Made by a program: the position numbers and the translations under genes. A stretch of DNA of 63,058 bases, filler included, from Reclinomonas americana ATCC 50394 (lineage: Eukaryota): NCBI GenBank assembly GCA_048213135.1. It is 6 parts of 5 records of this genome, joined end to end, with 100 filler letters (N's around TTAATTAATTAA, not from the genome) between each part and the next. Parts side by side here need not be neighbours in the genome. Positions count along the whole stretch, not along the records: positions 1 to 31,526 come from PS015651.1; 5 more parts are not named here. One strand, 5' to 3'. Positions 1-28,904 of this stretch are shown here, piece after piece; the first letter of the stretch is position 1, and each line of letters begins with the position of its first letter. The notes under the pieces are model-generated. The model ran no database searches, was not told where the DNA came from, and saw only the letters and a list, made by a program, of their open reading frames with translations.

Positions 1-3000
1 GGTTAGTGGTGTTGCGCGCATGCAGACAAACAGACAGAGCAGCCTCCAACACGTGCCTTGTTCGCCTTGCGGATTCTTGTCGAGCAGTTCGCGACCGACA
101 CGCTCGACCTCACGGTGTCGGCCCTGCTTTTGCAGAATCTGCATGAGCACCAACTGCGTCTCCACTGCATCCGGATGTCTACGCCACGGCACGAGTTCGT
201 GAGCGACTGGCAGCACGCAGAAGAATGGCGATCACAAGCACGCAACGTTGGTCCGAGAATTCGGATGCGGTCTTCGACGCATTCACGACACTCACGCACG
301 CCCTCGCCCAGTCGACCCGTGATGAGCAAGCACTCGGAGAGTGCGTGCCGTGAGGCCAATACATCGGGATCGGTTGGCTGGAACTGGCGCTTGCGCTGTG
401 TCAGCACTTGACGCAACACGATCTCCGCCTGCCAACGCAGTGAGTGACCAGTGACACACACACACACACACACACACATCAAAGAAGACGATTCGCGTGG
501 CTGACCTCGGCGTGCTTGCCCTCCGCAAAGATGCACAGGCCGAGCTCGTGCTGCGCCTGCAGCGTGAGGCGATTGCTTTCGCCGAGCACTCGAATACGTC
601 GCACGACGAGGTCTTCCAGCAGCACACGGGCCTCGGACGGTCGCCCCAGCTTGCGCCGAGTCGTGCCCAGGTCGCACATGGTGCTCAGGGTCGTGGGATG
701 ATCCTTGCCCATCTCGCGCTCCATAATGGCCACGCACGCCAGCTGCTGCGCCTCACACTCGGCCAGCGCACCCAACAGGCCGTGCAGGCGAGCCAACGTG
801 GACCGAATGCGCAGCACCTCGGCACCCTCGGTCGGGCCCGTCTTTTCGGCGTGTTGCAGCAGCACCTGTGTGTGCGCACACAACCATGTTGGAGACTGAC
901 GACGCGATCACGCGCACACGAGAAGCACAAAATGCGCACCTGATAGAGATCTCGTGCACGGCCATAGTTGGCCGTGCTCTCGTACATTTGCGCCAGAAGC
1001 GACCGCGTCTCCATGGTGTCCTCGTCAATGAGTATGCCTTCCGCCACCAGCTCCAGGCGCGCAACCAGACACGCCTCGGCCAACTCAATGGCCTCTTGGT
1101 TGCGTCCGAGTGAGCGCAGTGTGAGCGCCAGGAAATGCATGGTCGTAAGCGTGTGCGGATGCTGTGGCGCCGCATGTGTGAGAATGCAGGAGCGATCAAC
1201 TGATGCCACAACTGCACAGACCTTGGGTCCCAGCAGCTCGCGTCGGTGTTTCAAGAGTTGTCGCTCCAGTGTTTCGACCTCCGCGAACCGACCTTGTGCA
1301 TCCAAGTTGACGGCCAGCTGGTGCAGTACGGCGAGTGTATCCGGATGAGCGTCGCCCAGAGTCTCGCTTCGTGCTATCGGCGCAGGCACACATGAGCGAG
1401 CGGGCTCAGCAGGGCATGGTGCATGTTGTGTGTGTGTGAGCAGAATACCTTCGTGGCACTGACGATGCAGCGTCTCGGCCTCCTTCAGCTTGTTCAGCGC
1501 CTGCAGCACAGAGGCCAGTGCAAACTGCGTGTCGAGCAGACTTGGATCGCGCGGTGGGAGCAGGCGGAGACGCGCCTGTAAAAGAAGCAACAAGACAAAC
1601 GTTTAAGCATTACGACCGATATCAAAAGAAATCAACCAGTTGGCATAACCTCGAGACACTTGCGCAGATTCCGCTCAGCGGCCTGCGGCTCGGCCAGCGA
1701 ATGCTGCGTGACTCCGAGCGAGTGTAGGGCTCCGAGCGTTTGCGCGGCATCGTCGCCATACACTCGCGTCGCCTGTCGTGCGTACGTCTCCAACAGCGGT
1801 CGCACCTCCTTGAACTTTTTCTGAATGCAGAGCACGCGGCACAGATCACTGCAGAAGAGAGACTCAGTCATCATGCGATGCAGAGAGAGAGACACAGAAT
1901 CATACTGTCTCACCCCAGCGCCTGCACAGTGTCTGGGTGGTCTTCGCCTAATCTCTGTTGCCGCTCGTTGTACGTCGCCGTCAGACTCTCCACGGCACCA
2001 GGGCCGCGTCCGAGTTGCACGTAGAGTGCGTTGAGTGCATTTTCCGTCATGGTGGTCAGGTCGTGCGACGGGCCGTGCAGCTTTCTCCGCGAGTCCAAGC
2101 ATTCCTGCCACCATCAACATGGTAAGATAAACATGCCGAGACCGTGTCCGGCGCTTGTACAACAACACCTTGAGCTGCTCCACCGCCTCGTCGTGTCGAC
2201 CCAACTCGTTGAGCACCAGGGCATAGGTGAACATGGTCTGCAACGTGAGCACATGCTCCGGTCCGAGAGCGTCCCGTCTGCAGGTTGGTGGGGTCAGCTT
2301 CCTCCGTTGACACACATCACTGCAACCTACGCACAGCTTTACGCACCGCATCTGGAGGACCTCCCGTTCCGTCTGCTCGACTTCCACGTGTCGGCCTTGT
2401 GCCTCCAATGCCAGCGCTAATGACTCCATGGTGTGAAGTGTCTCCTCGTGAGTTCGACCCAGCGTCCGTATTTGTGAGGCAAGAGTCTCTCTGCAACGAC
2501 AATAAAAAAGAGTATCACTTTTCTGCTCCACATATCACCCCGACTTCGACGTGTGGTGGAGGATGCACTCACCGCAAGTGCGTCTCCGCCGACGCCGGTT
2601 CGTTGTTGGCCAGAAACGTGTTGGCCAAGCTAACACGACAGCGCACGGTGAATGGGTCGTCGGGGCCGTTCTTGTCCACCAGCGTCTTGAGCGACTGGCA
2701 CTGCAGCACAATAGCCTCACTGTAGCGGCCTGTGTAGAAAGCAAGAGTGTTGGCAACCAACCCCCAGCCTGCATGGATGATCGCCAAGAAGAGACGAACC
2801 GAGTTCCGCCAGCACAGCGGCGAGATTGTGACGTGTCAACAGCACACTGGTGTGGTCTGGCGCGTACAGTTGCTGCTGCGCCTCGAAGCAGTCCTGATAC
2901 ACGACAGCGGCCTCGATGAACATGCTCAACGCCTGCAGTGTGGAGGCAAAGTTGTGCTTGGTGCGGAGAGTTTGCGGGTGTGTGGCTGACACGAGGACCG

Positions 3001-6000
3001 AGCGAGTGAGCACCAATAAGGAGAATGTGAACTCTCAGCGTGCGCTCACCTCCCAGCACTTCCGACTGCAGTGCAACTGCCTTGCGCAGTACCGGTTCGG
3101 CCTCCTCAAATCTGCGCAGCGGCGTGTGAGAAACAACCAAGCTGATGTGCGCAGCGTACGTGTGCAACGAAACTTGGATTGCGCCCACAGAGTCTCCGCC
3201 AGATTCGACATTGTGATGAGTGAGTCCGGGTGGCGCTCACCAAATCGTTCCACACACGAGCTCAGGCAGCGACGGAAGAGCGCCTCAGCCTCGGGGGATC
3301 GCCGTAGTTTCTGTAGCGTCGTGGCGATGCAGTGCAAAGTCGCCACCGTGTCTTCGTGCTTCTCCCCGAGAACCTGTTCACGACCCGCCATGCACTGCTT
3401 GTACTCCTGCATCGCGCAATGAAAAACGACCGTACGCGTGAGCAGGCCATGGTGTGTCGATACCAGCACCTGCACAACGCCACGCTACGCACCTCAAGTG
3501 CCTCTGGCAGATGCCCACAGGCGGCGAGTGAACCAGCCAGGAAATGTCTACTTCTCAATGTTTCCACATCACGGTTGCCCAGCGCACCCACTTGAATTCG
3601 CACACAGTTGGCCAGCACTCGCCGCGCCTCCTCATTTAGTCCCAGATTCCGCGCCAGCAATCCCCACTCGCGCAACAGCCACCACCGTCGGTCCTCCAGC
3701 TGCGATCATCAACGTGGTACGTCAATTGACAAGCCCCTACGAAAGAGAGAGTCCCCACACACTTGTTCACACACAGCGCACCTCGTCAGCCATCACATTG
3801 CTACGTCTCGGCACGAGAGCCTGTCCGTCTTCGTCGTCGGGGTCGAGGATTCGAACACATACCTGCCGGAAGCACAACGCCAGCGGACGATGTCTCTCCA
3901 GATTCCACGCCGACACCAGCCGGAACGTCCACATGGCGCGCGCCCACCGTTCACTCGACATGGATCGTGGATCCAGCTCTGCACAAATGTGACGATGAGT
4001 GCTAGCGATGATCCGTAGTGATGGGGGGTAGAAAGGGTGGTGCGAACCGGCCAAGATTCGCCACAGTCCGTCAAGGTGACGAGCAAAGAGTGCACGACGA
4101 CGTGCGTGCGTCTCCAGTCCGCCTTCAACCAGCCGCACAGCCCACTCGATCATCAGCATTGCCAGTTCACATCGAGACTGCTCATGCGAGTAAGCAGCAG
4201 CGCGCTTCGCAACTTCCCGAGAGACATCACCGGTGCGCAACTATATCAAACGCCTCCACAAATCGTCGCTGCACATAGTCCACCAACATGGGATGCAAGG
4301 CGAATCCCACCAGCGATCGCCGCTCTGCTGGCACAAAATCTCCCACATTGCTGTCGGCGTCGTGGTCGGTGTCGAGCTGCAGCCGTTGCACACGGATCAG
4401 TTGTCTCGTTCTCGACCTGCTGCGCACCATTCACCTACCTCATCACTCTCTTCATCGGCTAGCCGCAATAGTGCGGCATCCTCCTCATCGGAACCTACCG
4501 GGTACTCATCGCGCGGAAGCACATGCGACTCCACCAATCGCTCGACAGCCTGCGCACACCACCACTACAGTGTCAGCGACGAGACATGTGCATGCGTACA
4601 TGAACATCAATACACACACACCAGTCGCTTCAAACAGGTCAAGTAATCGATTGCCGGTAGCGCGAGAGGCTCGGTGGGATCCGGGGTGTGCGATGCAAGA
4701 GCATGCAAACTGCGCACGCCGAGCAGTGGCAAGCCAGCGGCGGCGGCCAACGCCACCAGAATGCGACGCTCGGCCGACTCCAACCGAACAAAGCACGAAT
4801 CAAAGCCGAAGGTGGTCCACGGTGACAACAAACGGGTCAACACGCGTGGTTTTGGCATCTGTTTGCATCGGCTAATGGCGGAGAAGGCCGTCACAAAGCG
4901 CACTGCCAGTCGCACGTCACTCGGCTGATCGTCGGGGAGCGGCGCCACACTGGAGATGGTGCTCTGCGTGGAACTCTGCAGATCCGACTCGGCATCCACT
5001 TGCAGGTCGCACAACACCTGCCGCTGCTCGGGCGTCGCTAATGACAGTCCACCGACAGTCTCCTGGTGCGCCACATACGCTTCGCGATCGCCATCAGTTA
5101 ACAATGACGGCACCTCGAGCATGGAAACCGTGGCGGCAAAGTCAATGCTGCGCAGATCCTCTCGCAGTTCCTCCACCGCCGACGTGGTGACAAAGATAGT
5201 GACGGTGTGCGAATTCATGGTCGACGACAAGGTGCGCGGAAGGATGCCGGCCAAGTCCGACACCTTGGACACACCAAGGACGGTCAGCACAATCTCTGCA
5301 TGTCACATGCACACACACAAAGGATGAGTATCCACACAGCAGTGCCTGGCAGCGAACGCGTCGCTACCTTGCTCCGACGGTCCATACAAGTGAGCGTGAA
5401 TGGCATCACGAATGGCGTCCTCGGTCGACTCGCGCAAGTGGTGTGCACGGAACGGATTCAACAGCGCCAACAAATGCAGCGACTCATTGACGATCTGTGA
5501 GACAGCCCAGATGAGACACGGCATCGCAGTGGCAAACCCTGCGTCGGAGGCCGTCAAACCTGGAATTCCAACGCCGGCTGGCACCTGAAGAAAGTGACTG
5601 CTGGCGGAACACTCGGCTGCAGCGACGCCCCAATGTGTGCCACATCGCGCGCCAACGTGCGTGCAATGGTGGCCTTGCCACAACCAGAATCTCCATGCAA
5701 AACCACGATACGCACCGATCGTCGCGCCTCTGCAAGTGCACTCACAGGCGTGAGAACGACAAACCAAGCTCTCGTGCCTGCCGCACACAAACGCAACCTC
5801 GCAGCTGCTGCAGGCAGTGCTGACGAATGGCCTCCCACGTTGGATACAGAAACAATACCGGCGCCTCCACTGCCGCATGGCCCGTCAACTCGCCCAGCCC
5901 AGGAATGTCTGCACCACACACAATCAGAAGATCTTGACCACACTTGTCTCGTCCGCTCCAAACGACGCAACTGAGCGACGACACCGAGCTGGCATCGAGC

Positions 6001-6380
6001 GCACTGAGTCCCACACCCTTCGTCTTCTCCCCATTCAACGCCGGTGGCGCAGCCGATCGCGAGCTCTGCGGCCTCCGCATCACGGTCGTCCCCGACGGAT
6101 CGTGAGTGGCCGAGGCCGCGACCACCACTCGCCGTCCCGCAGACGACACCGATCGCGGCCGTGATGGTGGTGGCCCAGGCACCGCCAGTGCCAGTGGTGA
6201 CTGTGTGGCACATGAGATGGAGTGAGCAGCGGGGTGACCAACGACAAGCGACACACACGACAGACGGACCACTGCTTCATCCGCCTGTTCGCTCGGCGCC
6301 AACAGCATGTCCACTGTCGTCACAGCCGTGCTCGCGCCAGTCGCACGTGGCGCCACAGGCACAAACGACTCGTCCTCCAT
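1..6380 (-). CDS. STAND/NB-ARC-like NTPase fused to a long array of kinesin-light-chain-type TPR repeats (NLR-like); multi-exon, 3' end lies beyond the window start
   Basis: Spliced exons give a P-loop IVVLHGDSGCGKATIARTLA (~5650-5710), a degenerate Walker B region VLTVLGVSKVSDLAGILP, IFVTTS, AGLPL, and a winged-helix-like LHPMLVDYVQ. These are followed by many 42-aa repeats such as LGEKHEDTVATLHCIA, FGERHPDSLITMSNLA, LGEDHPDTVQA, LGDAHPDTLAVLHQLA and MGKDHPTTLSTMCDLG. Confidence 0.8.
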
Positions 6381-6627: not shown

Positions 6628-8881
6628 ATGACTGCGCGTGTTGTGTTGCTTGTGGTGGCCATTGTGGCAACACTGACGATGTCAGTGGCGGTGCAGGGTG
6701 CGTGACAAAAGAAAGAGAGAGAGAAAGGGCAAAGAATGAGAGAGTGTGTGTCATGCAGAGAGTGTGCGTGTGTGTGTGTCACAGTGTGTGTGTGTGTGTG
6801 CGAGAGATAGAGTGCAAGAGTGGGTGAGTGAGTGGCGGGATTCCGAGGTTCTCTGTGTCACTGTCTAATTTCGCAAGCAGGGCATGTTTTCGCTGACGCC
6901 TACAACCCCGCCGAGGCCAAGATCGGCGCCTACCTCTCCTCCTGCTGCATGTGCAACAAGGACACGATTGAGAGTTGGTCGGGGTGAGTTCCGACTGAGA
7001 AATGGGTGAAAGGAGATCATGAGAGAGAGAGAGATTGAGGAAGAGTTCTCCCTCCTCCACCACCTCCTCCTCCTCNNNNNNNNNNNNNNNNNNNNCTCTC
7101 TCTCTTCTTCTTCTTCTCTCTCTCTTCTCTCTCCTCCTCCTCTCTTGTTCTTCTTCTTCTTCTTCTTCTTCTTCGTCTTCTTCTTCTGCTCCTTCGCCTT
7201 CTGCAACATGGAGAGAGACTGAGTGCTGACCTCTCGCTTATGTTCCCTCAGAACGGCGTGCAAGGCGGTGCCTGGAGTCTCCGAGGCGGTGGTGTTTGAG
7301 AAGAAGTCGGCAATCTACTCCAGCTTTGGATTCGTGGCCTACGACGCCTCTCGCAACACCATCATGATTGTGTTCCGGTGCGTGGGTTCATGTTGTTGCT
7401 ATTGCGCTCTCGTGTTTTCTCCCTCACTGCGTTCACAACACACCACGACGATCAGTGGCACTGATGATGTCGCTGACTGGATCACCAACATTGACGTTGC
7501 GTGCACCTCTCATCCCTTCACTCGGCGTCGCGTTTTTCTCTGACGCCTTGTGGCTGGCTGTGTGCAGTTCATCAAGACGAAGCTGTGGGACACGGTTCGT
7601 GCGGTGCCGCCTGTGCTGCGTCTCCTTCTCCGCTTCTCCATGTGACGACCATGTGTGTGAACAGGGTGTGACGGTGCATGCGGGGTTCCTGCGCTCGTAC
7701 GAGGTGTGCCGCGACGACTGGAAGGTTGATTTCGATCGCCACAATGCCACGCACCCCAACGCCAACATCATGATTGTCGGGTGCGGGGTGCCCCGTGCTT
7801 GTGTTTCGGTGTGCTGTGAGCGGCCACTGAAGAAAGCCACTGTGCTCGCGCAGACACTCGCTGGGCGGTGCGCAGGCGACCATTTGCGCCGTCGATCTGA
7901 CCTACCGCATGGGCATTAACGTGCGTGCGAAGAGAGGGCGAGTGTGTGTGTGTGACGTGTATGTGGAGCACTGATTCTTTTGTACATACCACACCACAGC
8001 CGAACCGCATCATGCTGTACACGTTCGGTGCTCCGCGTGTTGGCGCCGACAACTCCTTCTACCCGTTCTTTGTCAGCGAGGTCCCGCTGGGTCGCTCGTG
8101 GCGTGTCGTGCAGTTGCGTTTGCACAGTCCCCTCTTTCGTTCTCCCTGTTCGCAGAGCTCACTCATACGCGTGCACACAGCAACCACGACGTGGTGCCGG
8201 ATGTGAGTCGTCCGCCCTCTGCGATCGGCATGCACCGTCTGGTACTCACCGTTTCTGTAAACAGCTGCCACCGTCCTACCTGCACTTTGAGCATGTGCCG
8301 ACTGAAGTGTGGTACAATGAGGTTCGGGGGCTGCGCCATTTATTTGCGCTCCGCCATCCATACTCACCTTCGTTTCGTCCACCCGAGCAGGACAACACCG
8401 AGTACAAGGTGTGCCAGCCGACGGAGGTCAGTGTTGATGCTGTGCATTTGCTTGTTCATTGCCGTCGTGCTGTGTGACTCACTTGAATACCACGCAGGAT
8501 TGCGGACCTCGTGCGTAAACTCAATTGGCATGCTCTATCTCTGCTTCTTCTTCTTCTCCTCACCATTGCTCTTGTGCCTAACGCCAGAGGTGAACCTGTC
8601 CACGGCCGGTGAGTGCACGCACACACCATCGTCGTCCATTCACTCTCGCCGAGTTGATTTCATGACGCGTCGTCGACACAGATCACGGATTCTACGTCGG
8701 CGTGCACCTCTCGTGCAACCTCAATGTGCGTTCCTCGCACACCCGTTTTTCACCGCCTCACTCATCTCTCACTCACGCTGATGTGCAGGGTTCGCCGCTG
8801 GAAAAGGACGACGGCTTGGTGCTGCGCCTGCTGCCCAAGGACAGCCGCTTCGACCTGTCTCCCGAGGAGGTGCAGGAGTAA
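6628..8881 (+). CDS. Secreted class-3 lipase (alpha/beta hydrolase), about 13 exons
   Basis: Signal peptide MTARVVLLVVAIVATLTMSVAVQG; motifs IVFRGT, DWITNID, VHAGF, GHSLGGA (nucleophile elbow, split by an intron), YTFGAPRVG, HNHDVVP and EHVPTEVW. All introns are GT-AG; stop TAA at 8879-8881. Confidence 0.93.
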
Positions 8882-9063
8882 TTATGTCTCCACTTTCTGC
8901 ATCCCCTCCCTTCCCTCTCTCTCTCCCCTTTCCCCACACGCCCTCGCTGCACGCGCATTGATAAACACCGCAGGAGCATGTTGGGTTGCGATCGTGTCAA
9001 ACACACTTTTTACTGCATACTCAAAAATCGCTCGGCGCTCGCCGGCGTCACACAAAACACAGC

Positions 9064-11208
9064 TTATTCAGCTGAGGGATCGTCGTCCACGCTGAGATGC
9101 TGGGCCGTGGCCCAGGTGGCAAACTGCGATGCACATTGTCCACATGAGAACACGCTCACTCTCACATACACACTCAATTCTTCTACTCACCTCCTGGAAC
9201 ATGATGCTTCCACCGCCGTTGCGATCAATCTCAGCAAACGCGGCACGAGGATCGCTGGTGCTGTAGCCCCACTTGCTCAGTTGCGGCAACATGCGCTGGA
9301 ACTCAGCAAAGTCGATGCGACCATCGTCGCCCGAGTCCACACGATCAAACATCTGTGTGAGTCACAGTCAGCACCACCAGCAACATGCCCGAATACTGTT
9401 TGCCGGCCCAACGCAACATCGAGCAGCTCGAGGTTCTGCTGCAGCGCCACCAGGAACAAGCGGAACTCGGGCTTTTGCACGTAGTCGTCGCGGTCGAGCC
9501 CGCCCGCTCGCGCAGGACCGCTCGCCTTGACGGCATCCTTGGAGACATTGTAGGATCTCATGATGGCCGGCTTGAGGATCTCCGCCTGGTCCTGCGTCAG
9601 CTGCCAGTACGCACGCATGCCAGACTGCGCACAGCAAGGAAGAGTGTGAGAGAGGCAGGCCTCCACGCACTGCCGTCAGAGCGAGAATGTAGCGTACCTC
9701 GAGTTCCGAGAACGACAAATGGCCGTTGCCATTCGGATCGAAGCGCGAAAACATCTGCTGGCGCTTCGCCTGGTCCGCAGCATTCTTGTGCCACGGCAAG
9801 CGGCCGGCGAGGTCCATGTAGTCGACGCCGGCCTTGTTGTTGGCCTTGCGGGGCGGGCGCGCCGGCGAAATGACGTCGGGGTCGTGCGCAGGCGTCGGTA
9901 CCGCTGCGGGTGCCGGGTGGCGATCATGCTGGGGGCTGCCCGGCAGCGGAGCAGGGGCATGGCCAGGCGTCGGCGTCGGCGCCGGGGTCGTCTTCTTTGG
10001 AGTGCGGTCGTTGGCAGGCGTGTATTGCTCACCGGTTTCCACATCGGTGTCGATCGAATAATTCACCGCCGACGGACTCAGGAGACCACCGGTACCGGAA
10101 CCGGTCGCCGTCCGCCGTTCGCCACCGCCACATTGGGTGGCCACCACAAGGAGAATGACCACTGCAAACAGGAGCCACACGCCGAGCCTGCGAGACGGGG
10201 AGAAGGACCACAATTCAGTAGCTGTGCGCGCGCATCAAGTCGATCGCGAGAGGCAAAGCACGGCACCAGAAGATGATGAAGCCCCAGTCCCAAGCCTGTG
10301 CAACCAAAGCGATAAGCCAACAGGTGTGCAGCAATGAAAGGGGGAGTGAATGGGCGCAACAGCCTTGCCGGTGCCGACCGTGCACGCTTCCAGCTTGTTC
10401 TTGCTGGTAAAGTACGCCACAGCCGCCAAGCAGAGCTGCTCGCATGCAACACAGTGAGGATCGACCTGTTGAACTTGGACAAGGCGCGCACATAAAGACT
10501 CACCGCAAAGGCCACAAATGCAGTGACCTGTGTGCAGCGCAACACATTAGTGCTCTTCCCGACATGGAAAACAGTCGAATACAGAAAAAAACAAACCACA
10601 CAAATCCACTTCAACGCCTTGCTCGTCGGCCGCACGACATACACAATGAGCAAGATAAAGAGCAGGCAAATGACGGCGGTTCCAGCGGCACCCACACCAA
10701 TGGTCTAACAATTTTTTCGATATGTGAGAAAATGGCAGACAGAGGAGGGAGCAGTTTACAAGTCGGACGGCGACGTCACCGTGCGATTCACATCCAAGTC
10801 ACCCAGACTCGACGTGTAACACACAGGGCCGTTGACAGAGTCATCGTAGTTGGTGCACAACCATCTGCACACGCACAAACACACACATGCACAGTGTTAA
10901 GCCGGAGTTTCTTCACTCACGCACACGCACACACACTGTCTGCTTCTTTCTCTCTGTGTGTGTTGTGTGTGACACGCACCCATTGCGCAGGCCAATCTCG
11001 TAGTAATACGCAGGCTTGCAGTCGGCTTTGCTGATCATGCAGAAAGCAACGCAGAGAAGAGTAAGAGAGAGTGAGTGCGCAAATGAGGAATGCATCACTG
11101 TGCACGCAACATCCAGTGCCACGACTTGAGCGCGAGGATGCACGAGGCAACAGCGCCCGCAGTGAGCACCAAGCAGATGACGCCAATGATGCGCGCAGCT
11201 TTGCTCAT
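9064..11208 (-). CDS. Four-TM claudin/PMP22-like domain fused through a Pro-rich linker to a flagellar calcium-binding protein (calflagin/FCaBP)-like EF-hand domain
   Basis: The 5' exons give TM1, W..GL..W.C...C, TM2, TM3, WDWGF and TM4. An in-phase intron (TG|gtgccg...tcgcag|G) joins FIIFW to LGVWLLFAVV. The C-terminal part (FSRFDPNGNGHLS, EFRLFL, MFDRVDSGDDGRID, LSKWG, FAEIDRNGGGSIMFQEFATWA) follows trypanosome FCaBP motif by motif. Confidence 0.8.
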
Positions 11209-11431
11209 TGGGACTCTTTCTCACTCTCTGTGTGTGCAATGAGGAGAAATGCAACACGGAAGAATGAGCACACGCAGGGAGCGAGCGAGCACACAGAGGG
11301 AGGAGGCCAGACGTGCGCGCGGTCACCTTCTCTTCTCTCTTCGCTCACTCACGCGTTTGAATGAGTCGCGAATAACGCGCGCGAGCCGCTCAGAAACTGT
11401 CAGGAATATCGAAAAGGACTTTATTGCATTC

Positions 11432-11790
11432 TCAGCACCCCGGTCGTGAAGCCTCTAGCTCCACGGAAGCTGAAAGTTGCCCGAAGCTTATGAGCTGCAT
11501 GTGGGGTGCGTTCTGGCTGGTACATGTGTTGCTGTTTGGATGTAAACTTTTTGTTGATGCGCTGATCATGATCAGTAGGGCGCGCGGACAACGAAGAACG
11601 AACAACAGGAAGAGAGTTGACGCACACGCCGCGCTGGCCATCAGAGCGCGCTCCAGAAACGCTGCCTGCTTCTCCGCATGCTCCTCATCCAGTGGCGGCT
11701 CGATCTCATCCTCTTGCTCCAACTCGTCGTGATCATACTCGCCCTCGAGCTGCATGCATGCATATGCGCAAGGATGATCTTCGTTGCCAC
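11432..11790 (-). CDS. Acidic coding-like segment, either a 3' extension of the EndoVII-like gene or a small separate gene
   Basis: Reading frame LEGEYDHDELEQEDEIEPPLDEEHAEKQAAFLERAL with flanking splice-like sites; I could not resolve how it connects to neighbouring exons. Confidence 0.3.
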
Positions 11791-11897: not shown

Positions 11898-12983
11898 TCA
11901 GAAACCCGAGTTCGCCACCCGCAGATAGGCGCGCGCTTCGGCATTGGGCAGATCGTCGTCGATCGACATCATGATATCGCGGAGCATCACGCGCGCCACT
12001 TCGCGGTCGCCTTGCGCCTCGTCTTGCAGCATGTACAGTGCCGCGCGCGTGTACAACTCGGGCGTGCGTGGCTCCACCACCACACGTCGACAGCACGTGC
12101 GGCACAGCAGCCCGCGTACTAGATTGTCGCCTTGTCGGCTGTAGTCGATCAGCGGCTCCTCCCACATGCCACCGGTGTCGTCGGCGGCGTCGACGTGGTC
12201 GGGCGAGATTGCGGCGCGACACACGGCACAGCGGTAGTTCTGCTGCTGCATGAACCAGTTCCAGTCGTCACGAGTGAACGGGTGGTAGCCGTCGGTGGTG
12301 GAACGGTTGCGGACTCGGAAGGGCTGCCGGTGCACGAGTGTGCCGTCCTGATATCGTCTCAATGAGGCTCATGGTTGCCGAGTTTGTCACATGCGCACAC
12401 ACACTCACACATACCGCGCGATGAATGGTGCATCCCGTGGCGCCAAGCTGGCAGATGACGCAGCGACGAGCAGGTGCGCTCTCGCCGGGTGCACACGTCA
12501 CAATGGTGCTGCACACCTCGCAGCGTGGTTCACTGCTCGACGACGATCGAGAGGACTGCTGTTGCGCTTGCTTGAGTCGCTCGAGTGTGCGTCGCACCAG
12601 ATCACTCACACAGTCCAGGCAGTGTGAGTATCGCTGTGTGTGTGTGCGGCGAGGAGTGTGAGCACACAGCGACATGATCTCTCTCTGCGCATGATCATCA
12701 TCACCTTGAAGGTGGCGCGCGCTGCCGCCCGCAGCTCTCTATCCATCTCCTCTGGCAGCTTGAGTTGCCGACGCATGGTGGAAACCACCGCGTCTGTGTC
12801 GTGCACCATGTGATCCACACAGGCGTGTTGTCGGCATCCATTGCACGCCGTCTGTGTCGACACCGCCACCATTCTCTCACAGTCGACATTGGCGCATTTA
12901 CTGCTGACTGTCTGTTGTTGCTGTTGCTGTTGCTGTTGTGATGATGACGATGGCGACGTGGGTGGTCGCCACACATCGCTCAT
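11898..12983 (-). CDS. Cys-rich Zn-finger protein with a C-terminal recombination endonuclease VII-like (HNH) domain, probably inactive
   Basis: N-terminal CxxC pairs (CANVDC, CNGC, CLDC, CEVC, CVIC). The last exon reads QQQNYRCAVC...LIDYSRQGDNLVRGLLCRTCC...ELYTRAALYM, matching the EndoVII pattern Q..RCAIC...VDH....G.VRGLLC..CN...RA..YL. Two GT-AG introns. Confidence 0.7.
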
Positions 12984-13072: not shown

Positions 13073-16000
13073 TCACCGATCGCGAGGCGTCCAGTCTGCT
13101 CCGTAAATGGCGCGCAACTGGCTCATGAGCACTGTAGGAAGAAAATGACAGTGAGGAGAGCGCGGGGGGCAATTTGCTTGACGAAAACATGTCTGCATAC
13201 CGATACGGATGTCCGCCAGCAAAGCCTCCTTCTCTGTATCGGTCTCTGGCGCCAGCTCCGGCGCCGCGGTGAGAACGTGCTCGAACTCCTGCTGCACCAA
13301 CTTGTCGACATCGGCCGTCGACGGCGCCTCCGACTCGGCCACCGCGTCCAGCAGCCGTCGGGGACGACGCTGAGCAAGACGTTGCGACAGGGCGTGCGAG
13401 GCCAGTGCATGCACGGCGCGGCTGATGCCAACCAACGCACGCAGCAGCGTCTCCGAAAACGACGTGGGCAGCTCGGTGGGTGGTGGTGGCGGTGGTGGTG
13501 GTGGAAGTTCGGCCTCCGCAACTTCCCACACGGCGCTCAGCAGTCCACCAGAGGGTCTGCCACCACCACCGCCTTCAGTCACTTCGAGGGCGGCGGCCAG
13601 CAGACCACCCCTGCTGGCCGGGCGAGGCTCCTTCAGCGGCCCCACCACTTCGAGTGTTGCTGCCAGGAGGCCTCCGGCGCGAGTCGGCGACACGGGCGGT
13701 TGCAAGTCGCCCGTGACCTCCAGCACGGACGACAGCAGATTTGACGATGCAAGACGTGGCGGCTCATCGACCAGCTCCAGAGCGCCGGCCAGCAGTCCCT
13801 TGCGTGCACTTGTGGATGCTGGTGACGGCGGCATCACCACCACCTGCTTGTCGGCGTCCTCTGCAATCTCCAGCGTCGCCGCCAGCAAACCCCGTGTCGG
13901 CGCAGGCGGTGGCGGCGGTGGTGGTGGCGCCGCCGCGGCCGATCCCATGAGCATGTCCAGCATGCCACCACCGCGGCTGCTCTCGGACGACGACGGGGTG
14001 GTGGCTTCGGAGAGTGCGCCCATCACAGCCTCCAGCATGGAACTGGCCGGCTGACTGCTGCCGCTGTCGCCCACCGACACCGGCACTGCCAGTGTCACAT
14101 CGCCACCAACCAGTGGCGGCGGCTGGGACGGCGGCGGCGGTGCCATGAAACTGTCGAGGAAAGAGCTGCGTCGTGTATCGAGGGCCGCGTCCGACGGGTC
14201 ACTGCTGTGACTGCGAAAACTGGCAAACGACAGCGTGTCTCGTGCACTTGTGCCATCCGCTTCTGACTGGTCGGCCGGGGCCAGCAATGATCCAGAAGGT
14301 GCGACAGAGCCTCCATCTGCCAGCGACGCGAAGCTGACTCCAAGCAGTGACGACATGGCTGCCGGTTGTTTCGGCGACACTGGCGACGGTTGCGCATCGA
14401 CAAGATCGGCAAACAACTTGGAGGAGACACTGCTGGTCGCCTCCTTGGGCGAGACTGGCGGTTGTCCGTCGGGCATTTCACCGGCTGCGAGCTCAGCAAA
14501 TCCGACGCCCAGCAGCTTCGATGCGGCCGGTGGGCCTTTCGGCGAGCGCGCCGACGACCGCGCCGACTGCTTCGGTGACAGCGCAGGTTGTCCATCGGCA
14601 GCGAGGTCGACGAAACTCACACCGAGCAGTGTAGACGAGGCGGACTTGCCAGCCGGGGCGTGGTCGTCGCCGGCCAGCACAAGATCGAGCAGCACATGGC
14701 TGCGACCGGACGGGCGATCCGATCGGGCCGACATTGACGAGGCGTTCCCGATGTTGAGCAGTGCGTCGACACCACTGCCACCAGCACCGCCAGCACCGGT
14801 CTCATCCAGAAGCGTGAAACGGCGCTTTGTTGCCGCCGGCGGTGCAATAAACAGTGGCGCAACCAGCATCTGGAACAGCGCGTCAAACACGGTTCCGTCG
14901 CCGTCGCCCGCGCGAAAGAGCGCCTCAATGGTCTTGAGCGTGGCCATTGTAGCGACTCGCGAGAGATCACGGACGAAACGACCCCCGCGCTACGTATGTA
15001 GGTGAGGTTGTGTCATGAAGCCAATGAGCAAACGACAAAGACGACGCACCAGAACCGCGTCCTTGAGCAGACCGCGTGTGAGTTGGCCTTGCTCGGCCTC
15101 GGATGGGAATCGAATGAGGCCCATCAGCACTTGGGCCAAGCGTAGCACGTGGTCGGCGCCCTTGGAGATGGGTGCGGCGAGAAACTCAAACACGCGCATG
15201 ACAGACTCCACATCGGCCGTGTTAATGGAGCCGTCTTCGTCTCGATCAAAGAGTACACAGAGGGCGCGGAAGAAGTCGGCGGCGCACTCCTGCTGCACGT
15301 GTTTCCACTCGGCATCGAGTTGCACAAACAGAGCGCACACCACCTCGGCAACGTGCTTGTTCTACAAAGAGAGGCAAGGAAACGGAAGGCAGATAAGCAC
15401 TTGCATGCACCACGCCACTGCCAATGGCGAAGCAAAATGATTCACCTTGAGCCACTGATCGAAGAACCGGTGGTGCACGTCGGCAGACTCAGCATACGCC
15501 TTGACCACGGCGTCGACGAGATCAGTGACGCGACAGCGGCCGTCGGGGCACTCGGCAAGAGCCGCCAAGAACAACTTCTTAATGGGCGGCAGCAAATGGA
15601 GCTGCGGATCGGTGACCGCGGTTGCCAGCTTGGAGACAGCAGGCAAGTGCGCTTCGAAACCCTCGTTCAGCTTCTTGTACAACTCGGCCGGTACGAGAGC
15701 ACAGGCTTCCTCGATGGTAAAGTACCCGCTGCGATGACACGGTGAGGGACGCGAGGGAGGCGGCGAGACGTGCATTTCCAACACACCGGCCCTGGCCATC
15801 GGCAAACATTGCAATGACATCCAGCTGCCGTCCGAGTGTGTCGTCCATGCGATCCAACAGCACGTTGGCGTACTGCGCAGCTGATGCACCAACGACACCG
15901 ATCCACTGCCTCACCGTCGGTGAGTGACTGGATGATGGGTGAAACGATGCACAAGAGGGGGGGCAACTCACCGGCTCAACCGTGGCCCGGACGAGCTGCC

Positions 16001-22138: not shown

Positions 22139-23079
22139 GTCAGTTGGCATGCCTTGTGTGCGCGTGCGTGTGTGTGTGTGCATGAAAAAAAGTGTGTGTT
22201 TTTTCCCGCGCGCGCACACTCACTTTTTTTTTATGTGTGCGCACAGATGCAAGTGAGAGCAAGAGCGAATTGCACGTGTCGCCTTCCGGTCTCGAGGAGG
22301 GTGCGTGCGTGCGTTTGTTTGTGTTTGTGTGTGTGTTTTTTTNNNNNNNNNNNNNNNNNNNNNNNNNNNNNNNNNNNNNNNNNNNNNNNNNNNNNNNNNN
22401 NNNNNNNNNNNNNNNNNNNNNNNNNNNNNNNNNNNNNNNNNNNNNNNNNNNNNNNNNNNNNNNNNNNNNNNNNNNNNNNNNNNNNNNNNNNNNNNNNNNN
22501 NNNNNNNNNNNNNNNNNNNNNNNNNNNNNNNNNNNNNNNNNNNNNNNNNNNNNNNNNNNNNNNNNNNNNNNNNNNNNNNNNNNNNNNNNNNNNNNNNNNN
22601 NNNNNNNNNNNNNNNNNNNNNNNNNNNNNNNNNNNNNNNNNNNNNNNNNNNNNNNNNNNNNNNNNNNNNNNNNNNNNNNNNNNNNNNNNNNNNNNNNNNN
22701 NNNNNNNNNNNNNNNNNNNNNNNNNNNNNNNNNNNNNNNNNNNNNNNNNNNNNNNNNNNNNNNNNNNNNNNNNNNNNNNNNNNNNNNNNNNNNNNNNNNN
22801 NNNNNNNNNNNNNNNNNNNNNNNNNNNNNNNNNNNNNNNNNNNNNNNNNNNNNNNNNNNNNNNNNNNNNNNNNNNNNNNNNNNNNNNNNNNNNNNNNNNN
22901 NNNNNNNNNNNNNNNNNNNNNNNNNNNNNNNNNNNNNNNNNNNNNNNNNNNNNNNNNNNNNNNNNNNNNNNNNNNNNNNNNNNNNNNNNNNNNNNNNNNN
23001 NNNNNNNNNNNNNTGGTGACACAGCGTCAGCAACGGATGGTGCGACATGCACATGTCGTCGTGGCGCAACTTGGCTCAC

Positions 23080-24376
23080 GCTCCTCTGGCGGCAAGAGGT
23101 TGCGCAGGTTCTGGTACATGAGCTCGGTCATGAACGGCGTGAACGAGGCCTGTGGAAGACAAAAACACTTTAAGTCACCTAATCCTCGTCCGTGTGCGTA
23201 TGCGCGCGCGCTGAAGACAAACCATAAGACGGCAAAGCAGCATCAGGACTTCGAACAGGGTGCTCAGGGCCTCGCGGCTGTCCTCGACGCCGCCCGAACC
23301 CTTCATGCGATCGCGGTTCAACTTGACGTACCAGTTGGTGAACTGGTCCAGGAACTGCATCAACCGCGGGATCACAGTGTACAGGCGGTATGCTATTGCG
23401 GGAGCGATGATGAGCAAACACACGTCACATGGTGGCAGCAGACACAACAACACGCGCTGCGTACCCTTCATCTCGGCGTGGACAAAGAAAGTCAGGCGGT
23501 GGGCGGCCGCGAGGATCCAGTGATCCATCAGGTTGTGTCGGCGGCCAGTGGTGCACGTGAATGTCTCGCCGGTGCTCTGTGTTGTCGAGTCAGTCATCAC
23601 CAAGTCTTGCAGATAAAGACGAGATAAAGTGGAAAACCAACTCACCCTCTCCAGTCGGTGCACGTTTTGTACAAAGAACCGGTAGGCGTTGTACCAGGGG
23701 AGGAGGGTGTCCTTGACCACGTTCTTGACACCATCGTCCACAAAGCACAGCTCCTCGGCTCGCACCACGGGGGAGTTGATCAGGTAAACACTAAACACGG
23801 GACACACAACAGTGAGCGTCGAGTACATGGGACACGTGGTCACGAAAGAGATGAGACAGGAGACGCACCGCAGCGCATCTGCGCCGAATTCGTTGATGAT
23901 GAGATCTGGCGCCGTGTAATTCTTCAGGCGCTTGCTCATCTTCTTGCCGTCACTGAAAAGACACAAAACAGTTCATGAGCAGCACGACAAAATGAAAAAA
24001 AAATGTGTCACAAGCAGGTACGCAACGCGGCAAGGACCAGGCCGTTGACAATCAGATTCTTGAATGGCGGCTTGTCAAACAGGGCGGTCGAGAGCACCAG
24101 CAGAGTGTAGAACCATCCGCGCGTCTGGTCAATGCCCTCGGCGACGAAATCGGCGGGGAAACCCTGTGGCAAAGCCGGAGGTGAGCAACTGAATCAGAGA
24201 TGAATGAAAAGGGGGCACCACGCACCTTCTCAAACGACTCGACATTCTCAAACGGATAGTGCTTTTGTGCGTATGGCATGCTGCCGCTCTCGAACCAGCA
24301 GTCAAACACTTCCTCCGTGCGCCGCAGAGGCGGGTATGCGTCACCACGTGGATCGGGCATGGTCAGACCGTCGACA
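23080..24376 (-). CDS. IARS1: Cytosolic isoleucyl-tRNA synthetase, central exons, on a gap-flanked contig in inverted orientation
   Basis: [69 protein letters not shown]. Confidence 0.95.
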
Positions 24377-24841
24377 CTGCGAGGAAGAGAAAAGCGGTCA
24401 ATACATGAGGGAGGTGCACTCACACGAGCACGAATCAATGAGCGAGCAAGACGCAACAANNNNNNNNNNNNNNNNNNNNCTGTTCTGTGCTCTCCCTTTC
24501 CTTTATCTGTCCCGACACTTCGAAGCTGTCCGGCGAAAGCTCCTCCATTTTCCGGGCAGTCAAAAGTAGTCGGAGAATGAGTAGTGCCAGTTTAGTTTGC
24601 TGAAGCAGCGTTTGATTTTCTGTCGCTGAAAACTTCGGCCAGATGGCTAGCACACATTTTTTGCCCCTCCCCTCCCCTCCCGATGCTTGCTCTCTTCTCT
24701 GCTTGATTGCTCTCCTCCACCACTGCCACCACCACGATCTTGCTACCTCGTGTTGCCGCTGCTGATGACTGACTCGTGCGCTGTGGGGTGTGTGTGTGTG
24801 TTTTGTGGTTTGCGGTGTGTTAGTTTGTGCGCCGTGCCAAG

Positions 24842-26166: not shown

Positions 26167-28904
26167 TCAAAAGCGGAATGGATCACCTGGTGCCCCCGAG
26201 CTCGACAGCGAACGCCACGGATTAAAGTCGCGATTGACGTCGCCGGCCAGATCGACACGTAATCTCAGCACGCGCTTCAGTTCATCCTCCGACAGTGGAC
26301 AAGACGATGGTTCGGTTGCCGAGTAGTACTCGCTGGCGTCGTCCACTCGCTCGAACGATAGTGCCGTGCAAATCTCCGACAGGCGGGCAAACTTGTCGCG
26401 CACGGTGACTTCGCATTCCTTGGAGAAGAACGTGAGCAGCGTGCGAACGTCCTTGTCCAGCTGCAGCGCGCCGAGCTGTCGTGCACCATGTGTGCATGTG
26501 TGTGTGAATGATCGATCGTCACCGACAAAACAAGCTTACAACAACAAACAAGCACACGCACACACCTGATTGTACCGTTTCCGCATCACCTGCTGCTCAA
26601 ATTGCATCACCACCACACCAATCACGTGCACCATCACCGCATCCATGTTGGTCTTCGAAAGCTCGGTCTTGAGCGGCGCAAACAGCTGCGACACGCGAGT
26701 GATAAAATTCCACGCGAATGGATCGTTGACCTCGTACGACGTGAGCGTGGTCTCGTCAATCCGATCGTACGGCAGCTGCCCGAACGGCTTCATCAGCTGC
26801 AACAGGCGACTCTCCAGTGGCTCCACCAGCGTCGCAATGCAATCCTGTGCATGCATGCGCGCGTATGAGGGCGTGATGGTGAAGTGCACAAAAAGTCGCT
26901 CCACCGATGCGCAACATTCAGCGAGCGCTTCATGTTGGCCGAGGTGACCTGCAAGTCCACACCGGCGGCGCTGATTTTCGAGGTTTGCTGGGCGTCGAAC
27001 ACATCGTGCACGGAGGCGTCGAATTGCTGGCGCAGTCGCCGAATGTACTGCACGCACGTCTCCATTTCGTTGACGTAGCACTGTGCATAAGCAGTGAGAC
27101 ACGAGTGCAACAACACGCATGTGCATGAAGCATACCAGCGCGACACGGAACACGGGATCCATCTGGCCGACCTCGTAGAACCGCGTGCTCGCCACACCTT
27201 CCTTTACACGCGATTCGACGTACTGTGTGCATCCTCGTCAGCGGCAGATAAAGTGCAAGGCAAAGCATTCCGTTGCTCACTCGCCTCAGCACAGGGACCC
27301 GACAGCACGCTGTTGATGTGGCTCATGACCGAAATCACCGTGTGCGGCGACAAGGTCTGCACCGACCGATTGGCCACGTTCTGCATGACAAAGAGCACGT
27401 TGTCGAGCACGCCACTGGTCAACCCGCCGTCGCCAAACGTGCCCTGCTCCTCCAGCTCCACAGCCTTGCGTAATGATTCCCGCAGAAAGCGTTCCTCCAG
27501 TGCCGCATACGTGGCCTGCACCTCTTGCACATACACAGAAAAGTCGCCGGTGCGCCCAATGTTCCACCCGGCCGACTCGGCACCGGCGGTGCGCTTGGCC
27601 TCCTGCCGCACCAAAGCTGCAATCAGTACGACGGCCCCCCCCCCCCCACGACACACAAACAATCCGCGCAGTACCTCGACTTTGGCATCGAAAAATGCGC
27701 GAAACTGTTCGCTGCGCTGACAGAGGGCGGCGAGCTCTTCGAGAATGGCGTCCAGTTCACGTGGATCCATTCGCACTTGCAATGCTCTCCGAGTTGTCTG
27801 TGCACGAATAACAATGGAGGTCAGATGATGACGGAGAGATGCGCGAGACAACGGGCACGCACCAGCTCCTGTGCCTTCTTCGCCGTCATGAACGAGCGCA
27901 GAATCGGCAGAGCGACTTCGTCGGTCACACTCTGCACCTCGCGCAGCAGCGGGCCGAGACTGGCCGGGCCAAAGTCCTCGATGATCTGCGGCGCCTCGGT
28001 TTCAATGGTGCCGGCCAACACATCCAACACCGATGTCAACCGGTCCACCACATCGTCCACTGCAGCGCACACATCGAGTGAGCGACATCATCGGACATGG
28101 AGAGCTCCACGAGCCGCACCAAGAATGGACTGCGCTTGCACGAGTGCGTCGGCGCGCACTGCATCGCGAATGTGCTCCACATACGTCTGCAGCGACTTGA
28201 CACTCTCGCCGAGTGGCGCCAGCAGCTTGGCAAAGCGCAGCACGCCACGCGATTCTCGCTTGTTGACACACTCGCGGAGGCGCGCCTGCAGGGTGATTCG
28301 CAGCTCGCGTTCCCGATCGCGAAGTACAGCGCAGGCTGGATCGTCGGGCACCGCGGCCTCGAGTGCGTGAAACTCTTTGAGAAAGTTGACAGCCGCCTCA
28401 TAATCCGTGTGCGCAATGGCCTCGTTGACGCCCTCGACGCATTTCTGCCACTCATCCACATGAGCACACAAACACACGCACACGCACACACATCCTTCTC
28501 CCTCTCGTACCCGCAAGTTCATGACGCCATCGGTGCGATCCAGAGCTGCGCGCGCATTCGTCTGCACCAGGCAGATGAGCGAAAACGAATGTGAAGGCAG
28601 TCGTCATCATCTCGCAACTTGCACTCGATCCAAGTGTCGCACACGCGTGGACACTGTGCTGGCCACTTCACACACACTCTGCGCCGCCGTCTGCAACTGG
28701 TCGACTTTGGGGGCCACAAGCGCGCTCAGTTCACCACTGTGCACAGCGTGTGAGATGAAGGACGGTGTGTGTGCGTGCGTGTTTGGCTGCTGCGCGTTGG
28801 CACCTAATGTCGGCCAGTTCGCGCTGGTGTGCGGTCAGTAGAGCTGTCAGCTTGCGCCGTGTCTCGGCACATCGCCGTTGTGCGTTCTCCAGCTCAGTGG
28901 ACAT
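26167..28904 (-). CDS. COG4: Conserved oligomeric Golgi complex subunit 4
   Basis: VSTRVRHLD, CVEGVNEAI..DYEAA, LRFAKLLAPLG, DPRELDAILEEL, YEVNDPF, QLDKDVRTL, VRDKFARLSEI..L, LSEDELKRVLRLRVD. Confidence 0.92.

Follow-up and report, generated by a model that had tools for sequence, protein, structure and literature searches.

A predicted four-pass membrane protein with a C-terminal calflagin-type EF-hand domain in Reclinomonas americana

Calflagins of trypanosomatids carry an N-terminal acylation signal (Gly2/Cys, myristoyl plus palmitoyl), and flagellar targeting of the flagellar Ca2+-binding protein (FCaBP) depends on this acylated N-terminal sorting sequence; in Lotmaria, the EF-hand part is also said to aid flagellar localisation (PMC10939215). 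In Trypanosoma cruzi FCaBP, EF3 and EF4 are the competent sites, and the dead EF2 was attributed to a Gly at position 3 (PMC4824491). Knockdown of calflagin in T. brucei did not reduce motility and lowered parasitaemia (PMC6027440).

Claudins and amastins share a layout with a first outer loop of about 50 aa and a second one of 16-33 aa, and amastins, which are claudin-like by predicted structure, have been proposed to act in membrane contact (PMC4671664). The claudin loop-1 signature is W-GLW-C-C (PMC3875640), and the corresponding amastin signature is C-[IVLYF]-[TS]-[LF]-[WF]-G-x-[KRQ]-x-[DENT]-C (PMC4671664). Fungal Fig1/FigA proteins have the loop-1 motif G-phi-phi-G-x-C(n)-C; FigA, a four-pass protein with a claudin motif, controls Ca2+ influx and is reported to have no Ca2+-binding motif (PMC5962676).

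In this study, we analysed a window of 63,058 nucleotides (the whole stretch of Reclinomonas americana DNA under examination, filler included), the source of which is intron-rich eukaryotic DNA with a GC content of about 58%. On the minus strand (11208->9064), between an ATG at 11208 and a stop codon at 9066-9064, we identified a gene whose 11 exons and 10 GT-AG introns give a stop-free predicted protein of 462 aa; an in-frame stop lies immediately 5' of the ATG. A preliminary description had proposed one spliceable frame with the ends 9064 and 11208 that no assembly gap crosses. Our model recovered the same coordinates with all 11 exons open, and the region 8800-11500 contains no N. The predicted features, all on the minus strand, are as follows.

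Exon 1, 11111..11208 (-), aa 1-33: start codon, 6-residue basic N-tail, TM1 (aa 7-27), Trp30
Exon 2, 10980..11030 (-), aa 33-50: loop 1 with Cys37 and Gly46-Leu47; codon score +9.3 bits in frame
Exon 3, 10780..10864 (-), aa 50-78: loop 1 with Trp51, Cys53 and Cys65
Exon 4, 10597..10704 (-), aa 79-114: TM2, short basic inner loop, start of TM3
Exon 5, 10504..10527 (-), aa 115-122: middle of TM3
Exon 6, 10361..10435 (-), aa 123-147: end of TM3, loop 2 with Cys140
Exon 7, 10267..10295 (-), aa 148-157: W-D-W-G-F, TM4 (first part); in-frame codon score +9.0 bits
Intron 7, 10188..10266 (-): 79 nt, phase 2, critical for the fusion; a rival acceptor ends at 10222
Exon 8, 9698..10187 (-), aa 157-320: TM4 (second half), linker rich in Pro/Ala/Thr, first part of the FCaBP domain, EF1 loop
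Linker, 10129-9827 (-): Pro/Ala/Thr, about 100 aa, within exon 8
EF1 loop, 9739-9704 (-), aa 307-318: D, N, N, E at positions 1, 3, 5, 12
Exon 9, 9418..9624 (-), aa 321-389: FCaBP-specific helices, degenerate EF2, PF22592 match
EF2 loop, aa 362-373 (-): degenerate
Exon 10, 9191..9352 (-), aa 390-443: EF3 and EF4 loops; top PDB matches 3cs1 and 2lvv
EF3 loop, 9337-9302 (-), aa 395-406: Gly at position 3
EF4 loop, 9226-9191 (-), aa 432-443: Gly at position 5
Exon 11, 9064..9123 (-), aa 444-462: conserved F-x-x-W-A helix, acidic tail, stop

The model was obtained by a chain search over all GT-AG paths from the ATG (introns of 40-125 nt), with splice-site, intron-length and codon scores. Scoring matrices were trained on 18 introns, 6 from the isoleucyl-tRNA synthetase (IleRS) gene, 9 from a lipase-like gene and 3 from the FCaBP part of the target gene, and the control exon borders were set by eye, checked only by an open, recognisable IleRS and lipase translation. 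The best path placed introns 1-7 at 11110-11031, 10979-10865, 10779-10705, 10596-10528, 10503-10436, 10360-10296 and 10266-10188, and introns 1 to 10 measure 80, 115, 75, 69, 68, 65, 79, 73, 65 and 67 nt. Two donors are ambiguous: for intron 3 (10779, score -0.5, chosen; 10791, -0.9), the former leaves an N-glycosylation sequon at residue 76 of the protein, within exon 3, and the latter removes 4 aa; for intron 6, the donor at 10360 (2.3) was preferred to that at 10378 (-4.2). All four combinations of these donors are stop-free and give four helices in 452-462 aa. Under the codon model, several TM exons score near zero against introns (exon 1 +0.1, exon 4 +3.0, exon 5 -1.6 bits) and the TM4 part scores -6.2 bits, with the modelled frame still the best of the frames.

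Two variants of the model were rejected: a micro-exon within the 115-nt intron 2 (strong donors 10930-10920), whose first intron would be about 44 nt, and retention of the 69-nt intron 4, which is in frame on paper and would break TM3. The extra length of intron 2 is a simple dinucleotide repeat. Introns starting with GTTGCG are common in the window (7496 and 8113 on the plus strand; 24026, 11110, 10360 and 9417 on the minus strand), amounting to 4 of the 18 controls and two more in the TM part of the target gene.

As for the surroundings, an intron-rich gene at ~6628-8881 (+), with a G-H-S-L-G motif in its spliced translation and two exon pieces without Pfam match, is convergent with the target gene, the stops being about 180 bases apart; we take it to be class-3-lipase-like. 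The 5' neighbour, an ORF at 11901-12368 (-), matched Pfam Endonuclease_7 (recombination endonuclease VII) above the cut-off with 25.2 bits; a phage-type nuclease domain within an intron-rich eukaryote gene is possibly noteworthy, and the ORF could alternatively encode a Cys-rich zinc finger of another kind. Further upstream, a 638-codon open frame of low complexity at 13076-14989 (-) contains repeated units of the 'G-[LV]-L-x-x-x-L-E' type and had no Pfam match. Ordinary eukaryote genes in the window include a TPR_12 repeat protein (~6-3700, -), an AAA/NPHP3-like P-loop protein (5557-6276, -), IleRS (23013-24460, -, recognised from its translation) and COG4 (about 26200-28600, -).

A family HMM of 177 relative domains, built with the target gene excluded, matched the model with 209.6 bits over profile positions 9-191 of 196, which bears out the earlier proposal of a complete FCaBP-like EF-hand domain. 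Two exons matched PF22592, exon 8 with 25.5 bits (E 1.7e-5) and exon 9 with 19.8 bits (E 0.001); neither reached the 27-bit cut-off by itself. In PDB, the top two matches of exon 10 were 3cs1, which is T. cruzi FCaBP (E 6.5e-12), and 2lvv, which is T. brucei Tb24 (E 2.7e-9). When a profile combining 11 relatives with three exon pieces was compared with PDB, only 3cs1 and 2lvv were retrieved at E<=1e-12; a PDB search with exon 9 gave chance-level matches only, and exon 8 fell to FCaBP clusters in the Atlas at 0.82, which is a lead only. The family layout is present, with the N-terminal half defined by PF22592 followed by an EF-hand pair over about 175 aa, and there are four EF-hands with a degenerate EF2, as in the FCaBP/calflagin family. 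The protein thus resembles trypanosomatid FCaBP/calflagins (3cs1, 2lvv) in having a complete four-EF-hand domain with degenerate EF2. Unlike in calflagins, this domain is C-terminal, behind four TM helices and the linker, and the protein has no N-terminal Gly/Cys acylation signal.

The first Asp and last Glu are kept in EF1, EF3 and EF4, and the ligand positions match the family consensus. Over the 177 domains, conservation amounts to 88-99% for the EF1 ligands, which are intact here, and to 98-99% for the Asp that opens and the Glu that closes EF3 and EF4; the Gly variants of EF3 and EF4 occur in 37% and 89% of these domains, respectively. In trypanosomatid calflagin the situation is different, since here the EF3 and EF4 ligand sets (positions 1, 3, 5, 12) are incomplete and that of EF1 is complete instead; likewise, EF1 is the most canonical loop, unlike in T. 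cruzi FCaBP with its working EF3 and EF4 (PMC4824491). It is likely that the domain binds Ca2+. EF1 is a likely binding site and EF3 and EF4 are uncertain ones, because the EF1 ligands are complete whereas EF3 and EF4 carry the Gly residues for which T. cruzi EF2 provides a precedent.

The N-terminal part contains four hydrophobic helices at about aa 7-27, 79-102, 111-133 and 151-176 (Kyte-Doolittle peaks 2.6, 2.8, 2.6 and 3.1) with both ends predicted inside, as expected from the 4-TM domain noticed previously; the corresponding stretches free of charged residues are 7-27, 78-102, 111-133 and 151-179. The N-tail (6 residues) and the inner loop (8 residues) are basic, outer loop 1 (~50 aa) contains Cys37, Cys53 and Cys65, and outer loop 2 (~17 aa) contains Cys140. 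By hydropathy and charge only, this is the layout of the claudin/PMP22 superfamily (amastins, Fig1/FigA, TARP/GSG1L): four TM helices, a short inner N-tail, a short inner loop, a loop 1 of ~50 aa with Trp, Gly-Leu and a Cys pair, a loop 2 within 16-33 aa and a cytosolic C-tail. We presume that the Trp created across intron 7 lies in the place of the conserved TM4 Trp of PMP22-like proteins, which follows aromatic-x-aromatic-Gly-aromatic.

Measured against the residue spacings of the claudin W-GLW-C-C signature, the strict motif is absent from the protein (W30, G46-L47, W51, C53, C65), the L-to-W gap being 3 residues longer and the gap before C one residue shorter. A relaxed W..GL..C..C is present in loop 1, a pattern that was chosen after the sequence had been seen and that also occurred in 125 of 20000 shuffles. 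Loop 1, read by eye, does not contain the amastin signature, and it misses the Fig1/FigA motif, having G-x3-G-x2-C with either gap one residue longer. Searched one by one, exon-derived pieces 24-72 aa long (three from the TM region plus exon 8; further sets of 8, 1 and 2) had no claudin-clan match in Pfam, PDB or the Atlas, a weak negative for such short pieces. PDB searches with exon 3 and with exons 4-5 gave chance-level matches only, and in the Atlas the TM2-TM3 piece went to Bax1-I clusters at 0.81 with low recognition, again only a lead. The claudin-like character suggested in the preliminary description is only partly supported, through the topology and the loop-1 pattern set afterwards; the strict signature is absent and no exon piece had a clan match. 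Unlike the superfamily, the protein has a deviating W-GLW-C-C spacing and no PDZ-binding end, and the likeness is one of layout without a search match. We regard the domain as built like a claudin-superfamily tetraspan with membership not assigned; a claudin-superfamily fold is rather probable. FigA (PMC5962676) differs in that it is the C-tail of the protein described here that carries an EF-hand domain.

To place the C-terminal domain, relatives were collected by searching the full library with exon 10 (753 proteins with E<=0.001, the best 150 of which were used) and from a profile search of proteins of 427-2000 aa (139 among 8000 candidates, 120 used). The 259 distinct proteins pooled include 116 with a near-complete domain, and the counts below disregard the other 143, which are fragments or generic EF-hand proteins. 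The closest sequences to the target domain are members of this wider FCaBP-like family, with 30-46% identity (177 domains in 108 proteins, among the matches listed) and the same EF3 and EF4 Gly variants. Exon 10 is up to 59-60% identical to listed relatives, and 24 of 54 residues are identical to 3cs1. Hydrophobic segments are lacking in 111 of the 116 listed full-domain relatives and single in the remaining 5, so that the four TM helices of the protein compare with at most one such segment in the family, and none of the 116 resembles the four-pass N-terminal domain. In this survey, tilted to multi-copy proteins and limited to 427-2000 aa in its profile search, 51 relatives have one domain copy and 65 have 2-5. 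A Met-Gly start was seen in 11 of the 116, some of which may be fragments.

FCaBP-like domains are fused to caspase, PDZ, C2, SH3, ankyrin, TPR and other domains (Pfam on 46 of the 150 proteins plus precomputed lists), examples being P0056, P0183, P0153, P0195, P0200 and P0242, with caspase-like, PDZ, C2, ankyrin and SH3 partners; the caspase fusion suggests a Ca2+-sensing protease. Named sources include a euglenid, a diplonemid, whose domains are weak at 55 bits, and a Bacillariaceae MAG, whose single relative stands in a record with a possibly wrong label. To our knowledge, Bacillariaceae are pennate diatoms without flagella. A multi-copy FCaBP-like protein labelled as Marinobacter MAG (P0161) is probably eukaryotic contamination. 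Judged on these sequences, the FCaBP domain is a general, mobile protist module, and such widespread, shuffled fusions mean that the domain alone is no flagellar address. They also lower the surprise of one more fusion.

No database protein among the relatives listed has the four-pass plus FCaBP build, and word-index searches with exon 8 (proteins of 287-2000 aa) and exon 9 (122-2000 aa) found no match, both weak negatives. A metagenome scan with exon 10 gave 14 loci and no match to the N-terminal domain below E 8.8; prokaryote genome contigs contained no relative of P0053, and the window holds no paralogue of the target gene. In the literature, searched mainly through titles and abstract openings and outside most subscription journals, no fusion of a claudin-like and a calflagin domain was found, nor did any paper among the matches listed have a calflagin term beside a claudin or four-transmembrane term. 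These searches agree with the earlier remark that the architecture has no described example, and the four-pass membrane domain plus calflagin-type domain is probably a new domain combination.

With regard to function, one gene would encode an integral membrane protein that carries its own Ca2+ sensor on the cytosolic side. Both termini would be cytosolic, with the EF-hand domain below the membrane on a flexible tether, and this domain would need no acylation because the TM part tethers it. The four outer Cys residues may form two disulfides in a claudin-type beta-sheet cap. EF1 would be the most likely Ca2+ site, with EF3 and EF4 possibly weaker and EF2 dead, and a local rise in Ca2+ may switch the binding of the domain to a neighbouring membrane protein or to its own copies. 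Its most likely role would then be to serve a channel or a membrane-contact complex of the cell surface as an accessory subunit that provides Ca2+ feedback. Comparable proteins are the claudin-fold Fig1/FigA and the claudin-type accessory subunits TARP and GSG1L, which have no sensor of their own. Our best reading is therefore a Ca2+ sensor, tethered to the membrane, by which a partner protein or a membrane contact is regulated; we would put its chance just short of even. Only tentatively do we consider a lineage-specific family of claudin-fold surface proteins, Ca2+-switched via the fused calflagin domain, in which paralogues would have kept or lost sensing.

Another possibility, proposed in the preliminary description, is a flagellar-membrane or adhesion protein, in which the TM domain takes the place of the acyl anchor and the outer loops would attach the flagellum, depending on Ca2+, to the cell body, to a substrate or to another cell. 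The sole characterised FCaBP relatives are flagellar, the EF-hand part is said to contribute to flagellar localisation in Lotmaria (PMC10939215), and a membrane-contact role was proposed for amastins (PMC4671664). However, the predicted protein begins with Met-Ser followed by TM1 and has no N-terminal Gly/Cys for myristoylation or palmitoylation. Because this acylated targeting sequence is absent, a flagellar location is possible but without direct support. Moreover, the FCaBP module is widespread and promiscuous, and exon 10 is nearer to unnamed listed relatives than to 3cs1. The flagellar assignment of the preliminary description was not upheld given how often the module is repeated and fused to other domains. 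Nor was its idea that a TM domain replaces acylation supported as a specific account, only 11 of the 116 relatives starting with Met-Gly. It is doubtful that the protein is mainly flagellar, and this flagellar-membrane or adhesion reading as a whole is somewhat more doubtful still.

A Ca2+-insensitive docking or scaffold role, with the FCaBP domain binding for example the submembrane cytoskeleton and the four-pass part being a plain anchor of uncertain family, is unlikely. EF2 is degenerate, EF3 and EF4 are each short of one side-chain ligand, the domain occurs in tandem arrays of up to five among the relatives listed, and the exon pieces are without claudin match, all of which would suit such a role. 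The conservation of the EF1 ligands (88-99%, intact here) and of the first Asp and last Glu in EF3 and EF4 (98-99%) argues against it.

That both halves belong to a single gene is very probable under the predicted splicing. A single exon, exon 8, runs from the last part of TM4 through the linker to EF-hand 1. The chain search picked the fused TM plus EF-hand path, although it is not neutral on this question because its scoring rewards paths that stay coding. The 123 codons 5' of the first internal Met are stop-free (as in 346 of 5000 shuffles), reach +53.6 bits in frame, compared with -23.5 and -16.8 when read out of frame, and have a GC3 of 0.73 (training 0.79), whereas non-coding DNA flanking the gene has a negative codon score in every frame. 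The family motif [IV]-D-W (55%, 54% and 72% of the 177 domains at its three positions) aligns with V-D-Y just 5' of this Met.

The preliminary description had named a rival acceptor (cacag before ctactga, stop at ~10215) that would split the gene; it is disfavoured in our model by its 45-nt intron and the 123 coding-like codons left stranded. All 18 control introns span 62-79 nt, so the rival intron is 5.2 SD short (z = -5.2), and internal AGs at positions 37-56 are passed over in 5 of 15 introns of the neighbouring genes. The intron 7 donor is weak (-0.4, lower than all 18 control donors). Two genes or products, namely a membrane protein ending after a truncated TM4 through acceptor 10222 and a separate 182-aa FCaBP-like protein from ATG 9817, are very unlikely: acceptor 10222 outscores the one used in the fused model (7.1 vs 2.2 bits), the product from Met 9817 is nearly equal on the family HMM (207.3 vs 209.6 bits) and the relative P0110 starts at the position matching the internal Met, but the short intron would be needed, TM4 would be halved by a splice reading Cys-Tyr-stop, 123 in-frame coding-like codons would become spacer, and the stand-alone FCaBP-like protein would lose V-D-Y.

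If the single fused gene encodes a Ca2+ sensor of the kind proposed, outer claudin-type loops for membrane contact or channel regulation would be switched directly by Ca2+ in a unicellular eukaryote, in a single-chain version of what elsewhere takes two proteins, a tetraspan and an EF-hand protein, and the fusion would offer a handle on the binding partners of calflagin domains. Claudin-fold proteins of unicellular eukaryotes are little known, and the fusion would add a case. Such a natural fusion suggests that the calflagin domain works at the membrane beside tetraspan proteins, which may serve as a hint for its partners.
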